NCBI GenBank assembly: GCA_031316235.1
Contig: JALDRA010000001.1
Span: forward strand, 810,001 to 842,000
From: Candidatus Scalindua sp.
GTDB taxonomy: Bacteria; Planctomycetota; Brocadiia; Brocadiales; Scalinduaceae
DNA length: 32,000 nucleotides
Reading direction: 5' to 3'
Part shown: in pieces, positions 4,883 through 31,281 of the stretch
Layout: every line of letters begins with the position of its first letter
Position numbering within the stretch: position 1 is the first letter of the stretch
Program-made: the position numbers and the translations under genes
The notes under the pieces: generated by a model
Seen by the model: only the letters and a program-made list of their open reading frames with translations
Told to the model about the DNA's origin: nothing
Database searches by the model: none

Positions 4883-4896
4883 TATAATTCTCCCTC

Positions 4897-5250
4897 TTGA
4901 ATAGAAAGTTTAAAGACTATAAAAGAAACTCACTGAAGGCCATGGCAAAAGCCGTTCATACTGATTACCTGCCCGACTTTGTCATTCAGGCGGGACAAAA
5001 ACTCCAATACTTCTTTTCTGAGTCCAAATGGGACTTGCCGGCAATAAAACAAAAAAGAATAGGCATTATTCAAAAACAAAGAACCACAGTAACTACAAAA
5101 GATGGTATTCTTACAATAGACGATACCGGATGTCCCAAACCCTTCGCTAAAAACACAGCGGCAGCCAAATGGCAGTATTGTGGTTCACTCAAAAGGTCAG
5201 AAATCTGCAATGTCGCCTTGGTGCGGCTTAAGAAAAAAATCACTGCTTAG
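4897..5250 (+). pseudogene. IS701-like (IS4-related) transposase, N-terminal fragment
   Basis: The motif DDTGCPKPFAKNTAAAKWQYCGSLKRSEICNV resembles the DDTG..K.G....V..QY.G..GK..NC motif of IS701-type transposases. The ORF stops after 117 aa and lacks the rest of the DDE domain. Confidence 0.5.
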
Positions 5251-8856: not shown

Positions 8857-9357
8857 AGTGAAGAGACTCCATAGTTACTCAGTAATTAATTATTCTTCTT
8901 GAGGAAATGTAGTTTAAAAATGCTATAAAGTTTCAGGAGTAGAATTGATGCTAAGAAGAGCTTTTGCTCTATCATCAAAAGTATCCTTCACACGTAAGTC
9001 TTCAATACGTGCAGATAACAAGCCTTTGCACCCGGGGCGCACCATTATCACCATTCTGCATCATTGTTCTCGAACCGTTTCAAATAAATTCAATCATACG
9101 ATAATTTACTACCCTGCTTTTGTTTCAAAAAACTCATGGGTAAAAACGTACATCCTCGTAAAAGCTGCATACTTTTAGCCATACATGACCCTAGTTAAAC
9201 ATATTATGCATTTAGCAGAGAAGCTCACCAATTAAAACATATTTACAAACGATAAAGGTAAACTCTGAGTGATCAGGGGACGTAAAGTAACAGGGTCTTA
9301 ACGCATATACAGGAAAAAGACTGTTTTACTGAATAGATAGTTTTTCTGCCGAAGATG

Positions 9358-25996: not shown

Positions 25997-26197
25997 GGAA
26001 GAATTATCGTTGAAAACAACGAGGAAGTCAAGATCTTTTATTATATTTTACAAAAAATCGGGAATGCTCCCTTTCGCATAAGCAACCACCACCTGCTTGT
26101 ATGCTTGCAAGAGAGGCTTGAAGCGGCAGCCCCAATAAATATTAAACCGCAAATATCTGGTGGTTGGCTTCATGCGCTTGTAGGATCTCTCCAATTT

Positions 26198-26369: not shown

Positions 26370-27393
26370 GGTCAAACCTTGATCTGTGATTTAATCATTG
26401 TTATTCTTTCCTTGATCTTACCATCTTTAGATTTCACGATAGTTACTCGACGACTTATAGATGAATAACAAAGGCCAAATAATTTACCAATCTCCTGATT
26501 GCTATACCACCCTGTACTCCATAAAAAATAGATTAATATATCACGATCGTATTTATTTTCTTCGCTTATCCTTGAGGATTGTATAAAATCATTTGTATTA
26601 CACTTTAATACCTCTGCCGCTTTCTTCAGAAGTGATTCAGGGTTGGTATTTCTTAATACCTGACGCTTTTGTGGGACTTCAACATCAGTTTTTTCTGTCA
26701 AATATTTAGACCTTATTTGGTCGACAAATTTCTGGGAACCCAAAATAATACCGTGTCGAAAATCTTCCCATATCCTCTTCTCTTCCTTGGAATAGCTTTG
26801 CACTATTTCCCTGTATGCTTTGTGCTTCTCTTTTGTCTCCACACATGAAAAGATAGGCCCCGTACATAACCACTCCGGTGACTTCTTCCCATAAGCATAA
26901 ATTGGATAACTGCTCCATGGATAATCTACTAATCTCCTGACAATTCCGGCCCGCAACGGATTTCTATGAATATAGCAAGAAAGCCGTATTAGGTATTCAT
27001 CATTTTCGATGAGAAAGTTTTTGAAGCGTCCTTGAAACAAGTGACCGCTTCGCTTATGCTTTACATTGTATCTACGTGTATAAGTAGTACCAAACCATTG
27101 CATGCTTTTAGAGATATTGGAATTATTGGTTTTTAGTAGCAAATGATAATGATTATCCATAAGAACGTATGCATAAACCTCAACATCAAACCTGTCAGCC
27201 ATACTTCCTAAAGTCTCTAGAAACAAAATACGATCGTCACTATCCTGAAAAATATCCCTTCGCTCATTACCGCGTGATAAGATGTGATAATAAGCTCCCT
27301 TATACTCTATGCGCCATTGTCTTGCCATGGTAGACAAGGTATCACAAACCACCTTTAATCGTCAAGCATATAATCACATATCAAGGTGTGACC
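26370..27393 (-). mobile_element. Y1-DnaA_C element, second intact but diverged copy (1024 bp)
   Basis: Left end GGTCAAACCTTGATCTGTGATTTAATC. Right end ATCACATATCAAGGTGTGACC. Confidence 0.8.
26372..27328 (-). CDS. HUH/Y1 transposase fused to a DnaA-domain-IV-like HTH, 318 aa
   Basis: ATG at 27328 (MARQWRIEYKGAYYHILSRGNERRDIF). Motifs DNHYHLLL and CYIHRNPLRAG. C-terminal RDILIYFLWSTGWYSNQEIGKLFGLCYSSISRRV. Confidence 0.8.
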   Translation of the reverse strand: MARQWRIEYKGAYYHILSRGNERRDIFQDSDDRILFLETLGSMADRFDVEVYAYVLMDNHYHLLLKTNNSNISKSMQWFGTTYTRRYNVKHKRSGHLFQGRFKNFLIENDEYLIRLSCYIHRNPLRAGIVRRLVDYPWSSYPIYAYGKKSPEWLCTGPIFSCVETKEKHKAYREIVQSYSKEEKRIWEDFRHGIILGSQKFVDQIRSKYLTEKTDVEVPQKRQVLRNTNPESLLKKAAEVLKCNTNDFIQSSRISEENKYDRDILIYFLWSTGWYSNQEIGKLFGLCYSSISRRVTIVKSKDGKIKERITMIKSQIKV

Positions 27394-27522: not shown

Positions 27523-27575
27523 CACATCTTGATTAGTAAACTCAAAAAATAAGTATAATCACTAATCAAGATGTG
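27523..27575. repeat. Mini-palindrome built from two Y1-DnaA_C-type terminal repeats
   Basis: CACATCTTGATTAGT (27523-27537) and ACTAATCAAGATGTG (27561-27575) form a perfect 15-bp inverted repeat, followed by GCCCC. Confidence 0.6.
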
Positions 27576-28079
27576 GCCCCAATTCAACAGGAATTAACAC
27601 AAAAACTGAAGAATACAGAAAAAGAAGTATTGTCAGTATCCAGAAATGATTTTCATATGTCTCATTTAATGAGCATTCCAGGCATTGGCCACTTTTCCGC
27701 AGCCTTAATCAAATCGGAAATCATAGATATCTCTCGTTTCGCTTCGTTTAACCGGTTATGTGCGTATGCAGGGCTTGCCCCTCGTGTCAGTGCGAGTGCA
27801 AACAAAACCTTCCATGGACCGTTAAACAAGAACAGGAGTAAAAATCTCCAATGGATATTGATAGAAAATGTTTATCATTTTATAAAAGCTATTCCAAAGA
27901 TGCAGGATAAATACGAAACACTCAAGAAGAGAAAAGAGCATAATACTGCGAAGGTAGCCCTTGCCAGGGAGATGCTCAAGATTGTCTATCATGTACTCAA
28001 AGAACAGAGGCCATTTTATCTTGATACAAAAAAATCTAAAATCCAGTCGGTGGCGGCTCCTGCACTCAGTGGGGTCTGA
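27573..28079 (+). pseudogene. IS110-family transposase, C-terminal domain only
   Basis: MSIPGIGHFSAALIKSEIIDISRFASFNRLCAYAGLAPRVSASANKTFHGPLNKNRSKNLQWIL is Transposase_20-like. The N-terminal DEDD domain is absent. Confidence 0.75.
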
Positions 28080-28309: not shown

Positions 28310-28452
28310 TATTAGTGTAACTTTAAAATAATTTGATTAATCAATTATTTGAGGAATCATCTGGTAGAAATAATCTCTTTTGTACTTGACAGTTATCTCA
28401 AAAGGTGACCCCAATTACACCACAGCACCTTGTTAGCCATTGTAGACACGAT

Positions 28453-28896
28453 TCATAGACAGAATGTTTTGTACAACATATAAGCCCAGCCTAATAAAAA
28501 AATCGAGGGCAGGCCATGGCCTGCGACCCGTCCTCTACGCGAGGTATAATCGCTCACATTTAAGTTAAATTCTTTTCCCGCATACTCTTGAGACAACACC
28601 TTTTGCGCTTTCCATGCGGCATTTACCGAAACCACAATAACAATGCAGACAGATATCCCCAATATTGGAAGCAGATCAAGGAGTGCCGACAATTTTGGCG
28701 TCGGACGAGCAACTCTTGCGAACCAACCATATGCAGCAAACAAAATAATTTGGGACTGTAGAAGCCAAGTTAGTCTGTTATGAACAAGGGAATCTTCATG
28801 CCACCATCTAGACCTAGCAAGCTTTTCTTCCTCCAAATTCAGTTTGGACTTCTCGATTTTCAATTTTTCATTTTCGTAATTATCAGTCTTACTCAT
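28453..28896 (-). CDS. Hypothetical membrane protein (N-terminal coiled-coil-like segment plus 3 predicted TM)
   Basis: The ATG at 28896 is preceded by AAGGAATAACG. Begins MSKTDNYENEKLKIEKSKLNLEEEKLARSRWWHEDSL, followed by hydrophobic segments. I recognise no family. Confidence 0.6.
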   Translation of the reverse strand: MSKTDNYENEKLKIEKSKLNLEEEKLARSRWWHEDSLVHNRLTWLLQSQIILFAAYGWFARVARPTPKLSALLDLLPILGISVCIVIVVSVNAAWKAQKVLSQEYAGKEFNLNVSDYTSRRGRVAGHGLPSIFLLGWAYMLYKTFCL

Positions 28897-29030
28897 CGTT
28901 ATTCCTTGTGATGGAGAACGGCTGAGATGACTTGCGAGAGAATAACACAAGAGTATAGAAAACAAAAATGGTAAAAAATAACTGCAATTCCGAGTCAATG
29001 TCTATTGATTCGTTAGGTAAAACCTTTATT

Positions 29031-29324
29031 TTATATAGAAATAGATGCTTCAAAGAGGACCTTAACTTTGGAGAGTCTCGTTTTTTTCTTCGCTCTCCAC
29101 AAATCATAATTCTGTTGCATATTTAACCATAGTTCGGGAGTGGTGCCAAATGCTTTTGATAATCGAAGTGCCATCGATGTGCTTATACCTGATCGCCCAT
29201 TTATCAATTCAGATAAAGTCTTTCTTGTGATTCCAAGGGACTCTGCAGCGTTTGTCACTGTTAGTCCCAACGGTTCGAGATACATCTCTTTCAAAACTTC
29301 ACCAGGGTGAGCTGGTTTAAACAT
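29031..29324 (-). CDS. higA: HigA antitoxin (XRE-type HTH)
   Basis: PAHPGEVLKEMYLEPLGLTVTNAAESLGITRKTLSELINGRSGISTSMALRLSKAFGTTPELWLNMQ. Confidence 0.85.
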   Translation of the reverse strand: MFKPAHPGEVLKEMYLEPLGLTVTNAAESLGITRKTLSELINGRSGISTSMALRLSKAFGTTPELWLNMQQNYDLWRAKKKTRLSKVKVLFEASISI

Positions 29325-29344
29325 ATATTTTCATCCTTTCTAAT

Positions 29345-29623
29345 CTAATGATAATCTAAATAATCAAGATCATGGGCATCACCATCTTCAAATTTAAAGA
29401 TGATTCTCCAATTTCCGCTCACACTAACAGACCAATATGATTGATATTTACCTGATAATCGGTGTAGGTTTGAACCTGGGAAATTGACATCATGTATCTC
29501 TTTTGCGGCAGTAATAATAGTTAATATCAAACGAATCTTTTTTCTATGCTCAGGTCTTATTTTTGAAAAATCACCCTTATCAAAGAACTTTTGAAGACCT
29601 TTATGCCTAAATGTCTTAATCAC
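29345..29623 (-). CDS. higB: HigB toxin (RelE/ParE superfamily killer protein)
   Basis: GTG start. MIKTFRHKGLQKFFDKGDFSKI...WSVSVSGNWRIIFKFEDGDAHDLDYLDYH. Confidence 0.85.
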   Translation of the reverse strand: MIKTFRHKGLQKFFDKGDFSKIRPEHRKKIRLILTIITAAKEIHDVNFPGSNLHRLSGKYQSYWSVSVSGNWRIIFKFEDGDAHDLDYLDYH

Positions 29624-29632
29624 ACCGTCAGT

Positions 29633-29649
29633 GTAACGCTATACGTTAC
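29633..29649. promoter_or_regulatory. Palindromic operator candidate upstream of higBA (GTAACG ctata CGTTAC) inside a putative promoter
   Basis: Perfect 6-5-6 palindrome. On the minus strand it lies between TTGACA (29658-29653) and TACACT (29635-29630), which are 17 nt apart. Confidence 0.45.
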
Positions 29650-29685
29650 GGGTGTCAAGTATTTTTTTTATATCAAGGTTTACCT

Positions 29686-29811
29686 AATGCGGAGTTGAGG
29701 AGCAACATTGAAATGTTGTCTGACTCAAACGACTTGTTCGCCCCGCCTGCGGCGGTCAGGCCGTTGCTCCTCAACTCCGCATTCGCACCGCCGCAGGCGG
29801 GGCGAACAAGT
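29686..29811. repeat. Two interleaved perfect inverted repeats (21 bp and 24 bp) in a GC-rich island between higB and intI
   Basis: Pair A is 29686-29706 with 29763-29783. Pair B is 29732-29755 with 29788-29811. The order along the sequence is A, B, A', B'. Confidence 0.9.
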
Positions 29812-29838
29812 TATTCTACAGTTTCTGTATAGTTATGA

Positions 29839-29881
29839 ATTCTATAAAATATTTGACAAATGTCAAGTATATTTTTATACT
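29839..29881. promoter_or_regulatory. Back-to-back promoters sharing a palindromic -35 block (TTGACAAATGTCAA)
   Basis: Plus strand: TTGACA 29853-29858, 17-nt spacer, TATACT 29876-29881, pointing toward intI. Minus strand: TTGACA 29866-29861, 16-nt spacer, TAGAAT 29844-29839, pointing toward the palindromes and higBA. Confidence 0.5.
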
Positions 29882-29922
29882 TATCTAACTGTATAGTATG
29901 TTTTATGTAACGTTATTTTACA

Positions 29923-31281
29923 ATGATAACTATTCCATCAGAAGTATCTGTTCGTTTCAATTCTGCTTTGGCAAAAAACAGAATTTCTAAAGAGCACCAG
30001 AATCATTATAGAAAATGGTTGCAGTACTATCTTGATTTTTGCCAAAAGTATCATTTCCAAAGTATTCAACCTGAAAGCCTCCAGAATTTTTTGAGAAAGT
30101 TGGGGAAAAAACGCCAGACACGAGAACAGCAAAAGCAGGCTTCTCATGCAATTTCTCTTTACTACTCTATTGCTCACACCGTAGCGGATCCTGTTGAGAA
30201 ATTACGGTCAGGTAGGATTCAGAATGAGCATATTTCTCCAGGGAATAAGGATTTATCTGATGAAGGCATGGAATGGCAAGCCGCGCTTGGTAATCTTTCA
30301 TCAGAAATTAAGATACGGCACTATTCACCGAAAACACTAAAGGCGTATACCCTGTGGGTCAGGCAATTTCAGGCCTTTACACGGAAAAAGGAGCCACAGC
30401 TATTGTCTTCAGCCGAGGTAAAAGAGTTTTTAACTTTTCTGGCCATAAAGCGAAAGGTCTCTGCCTCAACACAAAACCAGGCTTTTAACGCCCTCCTCTT
30501 CTTTTACCGACATGTCATCAAAAAGGATTTTGAAAATTTAAAGGATACTCCCAGGGCCAAGAGGACACGTTATATACCTGTTGTCCTGTCTCGACCAGAA
30601 ATAGACGAAATATTTATGCATCTATTATATCCATATGATTTAGTCTCTAAGCTTCTCTATGGGTGCGGACTGAGATTGTTTGAATGCTTGAACCTCCGCG
30701 TTCAAAATTTTAATTTTGACACATCTATTCTCACGATTCATGATGGAAAAGGGAAAAAAGATAGGACGGTACCTCTACCGGAGACAATCGTGCCTGATTT
30801 AAAGGCACATCTTGAACGGGTAAAGAACCTCCATCAAATAGATCTGGACGCAAATTATTCCGGAGTTTTCCTGTTTGACTTGTTGGATAAGAAATATAGA
30901 AATTGTGCAAAGGAGCTGGTCTGGCAGTGGTTTTTCCCCGCAAAAACATTGACTTTAGTTCCGGAAACAGGAGAATTTAGACGGTATCATCTACATGAAT
31001 CGCATGTGCAGAAGGCCATTAAACGGGCGGTTGGAAAGTCAAAGATAGCTAAGCGCGCCTCAGCACATACGTTCCGCCATAGCTTCGCCTCTCATCTGTT
31101 GCAAGCCAATTATGACATACGTACTATTCAGGAACTGCTGGGGCATAGCAATGTCAGGACCACGATGATTTATACCCATACGATAAAGAGGCAGACAGTA
31201 AAAGAGGCAAAGAGTCCTCTCGACTTTTCGCATCTGAAACGACCCACAGAATATAAGCAGAGGGTAACAACATCCCCCTGA
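29923..31281 (+). CDS. intI: Integron-type tyrosine recombinase IntI, 452 aa, with a ~115-aa N-terminal extension
   Basis: Catalytic R..K..HxxR..H..Y residues are present (GLRLFECLNLR, HDGKGKKDR, HTFRHSFASH, LGHSNVRTTMIYTH). The IntI-specific insert is LLDKKYRNCAKELVWQWFFPAKTLTLVPETGEFRRYHLHESHVQKA. An internal Met at 30268 would give a canonical 337-aa IntI. Confidence 0.85.
   Translation: MITIPSEVSVRFNSALAKNRISKEHQNHYRKWLQYYLDFCQKYHFQSIQPESLQNFLRKLGKKRQTREQQKQASHAISLYYSIAHTVADPVEKLRSGRIQNEHISPGNKDLSDEGMEWQAALGNLSSEIKIRHYSPKTLKAYTLWVRQFQAFTRKKEPQLLSSAEVKEFLTFLAIKRKVSASTQNQAFNALLFFYRHVIKKDFENLKDTPRAKRTRYIPVVLSRPEIDEIFMHLLYPYDLVSKLLYGCGLRLFECLNLRVQNFNFDTSILTIHDGKGKKDRTVPLPETIVPDLKAHLERVKNLHQIDLDANYSGVFLFDLLDKKYRNCAKELVWQWFFPAKTLTLVPETGEFRRYHLHESHVQKAIKRAVGKSKIAKRASAHTFRHSFASHLLQANYDIRTIQELLGHSNVRTTMIYTHTIKRQTVKEAKSPLDFSHLKRPTEYKQRVTTSP

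Follow-up and report, generated by a model that had tools for sequence, protein, structure and literature searches.

Gene-less cassettes, attC sites and the island beside intI

Integron cassettes without a gene are known and often carry a promoter, as in the superintegrons of Vibrio and the integrons of oral Treponema (PMC11014356, PMC6557892). A functional attC site needs R and L boxes, unpaired spacers and extrahelical bases (PMC4889954). Elements that target attC, such as IS1111-attC and the group IIC-attC introns, are 1.3 to 2 kb long and encode, or derive from, transposase or reverse transcriptase elements (PMC3001079). Our literature search found no description of integrons in Scalindua or anammox planctomycetes.

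The window, the whole 32,000-nt stretch of Candidatus Scalindua DNA analysed here, contains two perfect inverted repeats next to an integron integrase gene. Pair A comprises 21 nt at 29686 to 29706 and 29763 to 29783, is 100% complementary and was re-found at exactly the coordinates given by the first-pass annotation. Pair B comprises 25 nt at 29732 to 29756 and 29787 to 29811; it is 100% complementary, as annotated, but longer than the 24 nt first assigned to it. The arms follow the order A-B-A'-B' with spacers of only 25, 6 and 3 nt between them, so that the full A and B helices are mutually exclusive, as had been proposed; folding of the single-stranded DNA (ssDNA) agrees. The island was described as GC-rich within an AT-rich spacer, and its GC content is indeed 0.49 against about 0.30 to 0.35 in the flanks. 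Its placement also holds: the intI start at 29923 lies 111 nt past arm B' (about 110 bp in the annotation), a strong minus-strand promoter-like site at 29866 to 29839, matching 11 of 12 positions in a promoter scan, is directed into the island, and higBA lies downstream on the minus strand. Both strands fold far beyond shuffled sequences. The RNA minimum free energy of the island is -78.1 kcal/mol, where 200 shuffles gave -46.0 +/- 3.8 (z = -8.4), and the minus strand folded as RNA reaches -75.4 kcal/mol (z = -6.9).

Three readings had been offered for this arrangement: an attI/attC-type site folded from ssDNA, a two-state RNA leader and a pair of overlapping REP-like insertions. The first comes closest, since the island lies directly against the attI crossover and has arms equivalent to the R and L boxes of attC, but the island is a separate inserted cassette and not part of attI itself. 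We consider it probable that the island represents a gene-less cassette of 119 nt in the first attI slot of a chromosomal integron in a Scalindua-type anammox bacterium.

Boundaries and anatomy of the 119-nt unit

The regions upstream of eight intI loci can be aligned over an interval that begins at exactly AACAAGTTATT (window 29807) and ends at the intI start; on the far side of 29807 they are unrelated. These loci come from genomes of the family (G000, the genome of the window, and G001, G002, G005, G007 and G017), and one is also present as a public Ca. Scalindua rubra contig. The aligned attI region, 29807 to 29922, contains predicted divergent promoters sharing a palindromic -35 block (TTGACAAATGTCAA) and is conserved in all eight loci. 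The adjoining intI gene (29923 to 31281, plus strand) is intact in the window and encodes an integron integrase with an N-terminal extension of about 120 residues (TIGR02249, 391.5 bits against a cutoff of 265, with Pfam hits). The integron core site is GTTRRRY. On the cassette strand, which is the window minus strand, the junction reads ...AATAACTTG|TT, that is CTTG|TTCGCC, and the first cassettes at the aligned loci begin GTTCGCC (window), GTTGGCC, GTTAGGC, GTTGGGC, GTTATAC and GTTTATC. The breakpoint of homology at 29807 and the G|TT cassette starts thus place the beginning of the island at the attI crossover. The first cassette is a different one in a congener that shows ~98% identity in IntI and 96 to 99% in the upstream DNA.

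The distal end of the island, CCGCA|TTAGGTAAACCTT, coincides with the first bases of the second cassette (29012 to 29687, minus strand). This cassette contains higB (29345 to 29623), higA (29031 to 29324) and the R'' box AAGGTTTTACCTAAC (29026 to 29012), an exact RYYYAAC box that complements the start of its own cassette at 13 of 14 positions (29675 to 29687 against 29013 to 29026). It has its own predicted promoter (29658 to 29630) and an operator-like palindrome, both downstream of the island. Taken together, the attI breakpoint and the higBA start define the island as a separate cassette without an open reading frame, at 29688 to 29806 on the minus strand. It measures 119 nt, from the TT after the attI G (29807) to the A preceding the TT of the next cassette, and the same two ends recur in 23 copies. 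Two other delimitations were rejected. A 16-nt direct repeat (29653 to 29668 and 29861 to 29876), considered as an insertion duplication, consists at each site of an A-tract and the -35 TTGACA of a predicted minus-strand promoter. Helix A, considered as an attC with GAGCAAC/GTTGCTC R boxes, would have these boxes at the loop end of the stem, and the neighbouring cassettes fix the boundary after CCGCA.

Along the cassette strand, the unit opens with G|TTCGCC-CCGCC-TGC-GGCGG, followed by a first arm (U1) TGCGAAT-GCGGAG-TTGAGGAGCAAC, the bases GGCCTGA, a second CCGCC-GCA-GGCGG, a second arm (U2) GGCGAAC-AAGTCG-TTTGAGTCAGACAAC, the segment ATTTCAAT and a last arm GTTGCTCCTCAA-CTCCGC-A|TT. By direct reading, U1 and U2 are tandem duplicates of an R''-spacer-L'' arm, each preceded by a GC clamp, and the last arm is of the L'-spacer-R' type. 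The inverted repeats map onto this plan. Arm A (29686 to 29706, plus) is, on the bottom strand, the R'-spacer-L' arm of an attC-like site, ACCTAA|T GCGGAG TTGAGGAGCAAC. Arm A' (29763 to 29783, plus) is the outer R''-L'' arm U1, its perfect complement and a tandem duplicate of the inner arm. Arm B (29732 to 29756, plus) comprises the inner R'' box (bottom strand GTTCGCC) and the GC clamp CCGCC TGC GGCGG. Arm B' (29787 to 29811, plus) comprises the first bases of the cassette, the R' remainder that reads GGCGAA|C at the attI junction, with a GC clamp, and its final 5 nt are attI sequence. Pair B is therefore the inner R'' box and clamp pairing with the cassette's own first bases and clamp, a normal split R box of unusual length, and pair A is the L'-R' arm pairing with a perfectly complementary outer duplicate arm. 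A split R box combined with an arm duplication accounts for the interleaving without two insertions. First bases complementary to the cassette's own R'' are also seen in the higBA cassette and in two further cassettes of this genome with ORFs of 171 and 390 aa; for the unit, this complementarity is 25 of 25 in the window, and its 20-nt core is 83 to 100% paired in relatives.

Two further hairpins were identified. Hairpin X2 (29782 to 29806, plus), TTCGCaCCGCC GCA GGCGGgGCGAA, competes with helix B:B' and is compatible with A:A'. An inner imperfect L-box hairpin (29695 to 29728, plus) carries bulges at g29700, t29719 and ga29722-3, as in a canonical attC, and forms in ssDNA folds of most of the 20 distinct copies. 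A hairpin similar to X2 in design and unlike it in sequence was noted in a congener (G002 C22, L062:1440-1505), whose first cassette opens just 5' of its ORF with the R'-hairpin G|TTGGCCGCCA-GAAAA-TGGCGGCCAAT.

The inner arm and the L'-R' arm form a canonical-looking attC, with an AAC triplet, 6-nt unpaired spacers and a short loop. In the inner L stem, t and ga bulge out on the '' side, and neither spacer (GCGGAG, ACGACTT) pairs; in relatives the inner arm reads GCGAAC-AAATCA-TTGGAGCAGAC. The unit thereby resembles the attC sites of sedentary chromosomal integrons (the VCR type of about 128 nt, including this genome's own family) in its R''/R' and L''/L' arms, its inner-arm spacer and bulges, a suggestive bottom-strand pairing bias and an R' remainder that complements its own R''. 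It differs from them in an R-box helix of 20 to 25 bp, an extra perfect '' arm, an ATT/AAT triplet and weak HMM similarity. An HMM of the local attC sites aligns to the inner R''-spacer-L'' arm on the minus strand only weakly (E 0.01 to 0.05 on a 6.8-kb database) and did not match the island unit in a search of the whole genome. Besides this weak similarity, two features of the unit count against the cassette reading. The outer arm (pair A) is perfectly paired through the spacer, with neither an unpaired spacer nor extrahelical bases. In addition, the distal crossover base is A in about 20 of 23 copies (ATT/AAT) against the canonical G (GTT/AAC). The inner R'' is GGCGAAC, with AAC present, and the outer R'' is TGCGAAT; R' reads ATTAGGT, ATTCGCC, ATTAGAT and similar, its first base being A in about 20 of 23 copies, and GTT/AAC occurs in one copy only, by compensatory change.

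In common with gene-less cassettes, the unit is bounded by crossover sites, has no plausible ORF and lies in an array beside intI and attI, upstream of other cassettes. Such cassettes combine non-coding cargo with an ordinary attC, whereas all 119 nt of this unit consist of recombination-site material, one arm being duplicated: the "cargo" amounts to about 32 nt and is itself a copy of an arm. A promoter scan found no promoter-like site inside the unit.

Other features were observed in the window. A C-terminal fragment of an IS110-family transposase (27573 to 28079, plus), 1.6 kb from the island, lies just past a cassette with a 181-aa ORF. The stop of this ORF is followed by GGCTAAC-AAGGTG, an R''-like box (in 28380 to 28460, minus), which may belong to an attC disrupted by an insertion of the IS1111-attC type. 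A partial match to a VCR-like attC HMM (26134 to 26172, minus; HMM positions 23 to 62, E 0.02) adjoins an ISKra4-family IS and suggests that the minus-strand cassette array once reached at least that far. A c-di-GMP-I riboswitch match lies at 9247 to 9353 (plus; 37.1 bits against an Rfam gathering score of 35).

Copies of the unit in the genome, the family and metagenomes

The island sequence occurs once in the window, as first reported, but the genome (4.26 Mb, 42% GC) contains four further full copies and one partial one. The ~120-nt unit, thus present as five full copies and one partial copy, has the fixed ends TAATGCGGAG...GGGGCGAAC, and copies with 95 to 99% identity occur in unrelated flanks. 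Copy c3 starts exactly at the R' box of an attC of the 128-nt family; for c2 the R' box belongs to a shorter attC, the loop of which (GGAGCGYAGCGGA) is conserved. The cassettes 3' of c2 and c3, those with the 171- and 390-aa ORFs, each terminate in an attC site, and in each the R'' of this site matches the opening bases of the cassette. Two copies count against the cassette reading: the site of c4 is not recognisable as attC or attI, and c5 lies inside a TA-flanked MITE, where it occupies an A|AT site 14 nt short of the right end. An apparent 17-bp duplication around c5 vanishes once this nesting is taken into account, and the MITE insertion that contains c5 is absent at the orthologous site in two congeners. 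The MITE is itself abundant: it is about 140 bp long, TA-flanked (TACTAAAACCG...CCGAAAACCATTATAAGATGAGTA; L013:5757-5880, G000 C1:3679756-3679879), with 371 BLAST hits in this genome and dozens in congeners.

The 128-nt attC family of this genome, CTAAC-AAATCA-GTGGAGCCAACCCC ... GGGGTTGCTCAC-TTCAGAC-GTTAKAY, gives 11 hits, some of them clustered near intI fragments; its L boxes covary, and the extra bases lie on the R''-L'' arm. Its VCR-like sites form clusters in one orientation at G000 C1:912041-918227 and 1144925-1161965, the second adjoining intI fragments (tblastn 1142478-1148379). These clusters, at distances of 70 kb and 300 kb from the window intI, are CALIN-like cassette arrays that lack an intact integrase. 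A second, short attC-like family of about 65 nt, with the loop motif CGGAGCGYAGCGGAG (L012:7516-7585, L014:5165-5225 and L045 near 4890-4950), adjoins c2, the partial copy c6 and a copy in a relative. A motif of about 50 nt, CAGYTTCTGRATAAC..ATTATTGYRAWRATATCCAAATAAACC, has about five copies in the genome and is found in the flank of c4 (G000 C1:2821178-2821250) and, in G010 and G012, in the right flanks of copies. It begins with a sequence similar to the initial part of attI, and its side and orientation relative to the mini-cassette differ between copies.

We also searched for the unit in related genomes. Matches were found in 12 of 23 other genomes of the family, six with full-length copies and the others with partial ones; the 16 genomes that represented other families of the order gave none. 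When 185,579 species genomes and JGI metagenomes were scanned with exact patterns, only Scalindua-type contigs matched. In the sequences searched, the unit is thus confined to Scalinduaceae. Among the 23 genomes, 11 of the 12 with a full or partial match have an intI homologue and seven of the eight without intI lack the unit, a co-occurrence that is only indicative, the genomes being related. Many intI homologues of the family carry at least one in-frame stop (G001, G004, G005, G010, G014 and G017), which may mean that several of their integrons are in decay. In three relatives, copies directly follow an attC, its R' box supplying the first bases of the unit, and one relative has two copies 6 to 7 kb into the array beside intI, in array orientation. 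Of three metagenome copies at complete attI sites, one precedes an intI with 74% amino-acid identity and another precedes a degraded intI. The occurrence of the unit at attI before different second cassettes argues for repeated insertion. Unit boundaries are the same in 23 copies, across four genera and metagenomes, in unrelated flanks; the flanks of about ten of the 23 fit no recognised class, which counts against the cassette reading. Most interpretable copies lie at attI or directly 3' of an attC, and not at many loci unlinked to integrases. With five full copies in the genome, it is a low-copy repeat.

These copies bear on whether the island is merely the scar of an old event, a degenerate tandem of attC remnants left by cassette loss and passively copied, immobile and with functionless hairpins. 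Judged by U1 and U2, the island does look like two attC halves joined as a dimer from which most of one ' arm has been lost; its crossover base departs from the canonical one, and several relatives have in-frame stops in intI. Such a scar would not be expected to keep identical boundaries across genera and metagenomes, to occur as near-identical copies at different loci of one genome, to keep helix A and X2 paired through compensatory changes, or to recur at attI before different second cassettes. We therefore regard an inert scar as improbable; the unit has moved as one piece.

The copies also bear on the identity of the mobilising enzyme. A non-autonomous element moved by an enzyme other than IntI that targets integron sites, in the manner of IS1111-attC (IS110 family) or the group IIC-attC introns, would fit the IS110-family fragment 1.6 kb away, the position of c5 at a non-GTT site inside another MITE and the richness of this genome in small repeats. 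Like those elements (PMC3001079), the unit sits directly at attC or attI in one orientation. It differs from them in that no transposase or reverse transcriptase was found with it and in that its insertion point is the IntI crossover: the junctions are base-exact with that crossover at attI and at attC R' boxes, and the arms of the unit are themselves attC-like. No consistent target-site duplication was seen in 18 copies, nor were terminal inverted repeats; the unit ends, TAATGCGG... and ...GGGGCGAAC, do not form an inverted repeat, which also sets the unit apart from MITEs. The genome did not yield any longer parent element with the same ends. This explanation accordingly has a low probability in our view.

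REP-like insertions can be judged on the same evidence. The unit is short, GC-rich, hairpin-forming and intergenic, as are REP and REPIN sequences mobilised by RAYT, and a RAYT-like gene (26372 to 27352; NF047646, 82.9 bits) lies 2.3 kb from the island. None of the five full copies and one partial copy is near this gene, however, and a link to it was rejected. Unlike REPINs, the unit has five copies and no doublets, and its ends are integron crossover points. Two overlapping insertions are thus the wrong mechanism for what is one piece with fixed ends, five copies and neither terminal inverted repeats nor target duplications.

Strand bias, alternative folds and the proposed recombination unit

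Pairing was compared across 18 copies. In helix A it amounts to 96%, and a C:G insertion as well as two substitutions there are compensatory. For hairpin X2 the figure is 90%, and several lineages have C-G or T.G in place of its internal A.G mismatch. Helix B reaches 84%; only its 20-nt core (GTTCGCC..GGCGAAC) is conserved, and its outer 4 to 5 pairs are specific to the window copy. In some lineages helix B has three central mismatches and is clearly weaker than helix A. The recombining form of attC is the folded bottom strand. Where a change affects only one side of helix A or B, the bottom strand shows G.T in 34 cells at 13 sites against A.C in 7 cells at 6 sites, in copies that are related and at sites that are few. 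This suggestive bias is in the direction expected for attC and opposite to that expected for RNA made from the cassette promoter.

A role at the RNA level would have the island transcribed as a leader from the cassette promoter; as a switch between two states, or as a structural roadblock, it would modulate read-through into higBA and the cassettes beyond, or their translation. The strong promoter-like site directed into the island and the very stable fold of minus-strand RNA are what such a leader would show; array copies always lie 5' of the ORF of the next cassette, and gene-less cassettes with regulatory (promoter) activity are known (PMC11014356). The wobble-type changes, on the other hand, fit the bottom strand, the one not transcribed from Pc, and would leave A.C mismatches in the RNA. 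No Rfam family reached its gathering score in the island, sub-threshold matches being only chance microRNA or UTR hits, and no terminator-like site or tail was found. Furthermore, the predicted promoter and the operator-like palindrome of higBA itself lie downstream of the island, pairing in helix B has deteriorated in several lineages, and c4 and c5 have no consistent relation to genes. The RNA leader of the first-pass annotation is thus unsupported, and we hold it to be very unlikely.

The preferred reading is that of a mini-cassette recombined as ssDNA. The position and limits of the unit, the homology of its arms, its suggestive strand bias and its movement as one piece are observed; catalysis by IntI and any function of the alternative between A and B are inferred. 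According to this model, the cassette would begin with TTCGCC after the attI crossover G and continue with a GC-clamp hairpin and an attC-like site made of one L'-R' arm and two tandem R''-L'' arms. Its exposed bottom (window plus) strand would fold into state A or state B. IntI, the presumed catalyst, would bind the R and L boxes and cut at AA|C (29806|29807) and AA|T (29687|29688), which would require that it tolerate A for G at the distal crossover. The 119-nt unit would then be excised, or inserted at attI or at another attC, and the circle formed by excision would have the junction GGGGCGAA|TGCGGAG.

For the window copy, ssDNA folding gives -48.5 kcal/mol for state B (helix B with the inner L hairpin) and -42.2 kcal/mol for state A (helix A with two clamp hairpins). 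Both states are stable in every copy, and the favoured one varies. The alternative between A and B may be a by-product of the arm duplication, and the perfect outer arm may act as a competitor, or may be no more than a duplication that hairpin-templated repair has kept free of mismatches. A more elaborate proposal, which we consider unlikely, is a two-state ssDNA device in which state B is competent for recombination and state A locks the L'-R' arm, so that a self-propagating mini-cassette consisting of attC only would control its own excision. Under the same proposal, the unit might instead be a portable landing pad or insulator for the first slot of Scalinduaceae integrons, a role that would explain its recurrence at attI before different cassettes.

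The mini-cassette is most likely an unusual variant of known mobile DNA and no new kind of system. For annotation, it would mean that interleaved palindromes beside intI have an ordinary structural cause, a split R box together with an arm duplication. If the reading is correct, the unit is a natural attC with two competing arms, and would provide a substrate with which to study how spacer pairing, bulges and R-box length affect the strand choice and efficiency of IntI. Integrons that look to be in working order, with attI, two attC families and toxin-antitoxin cassettes, would be documented in marine anammox bacteria. Finally, cassettes would be able to shrink to a nearly pure recombination site and yet spread within a family, as a "selfish" minimal cassette.
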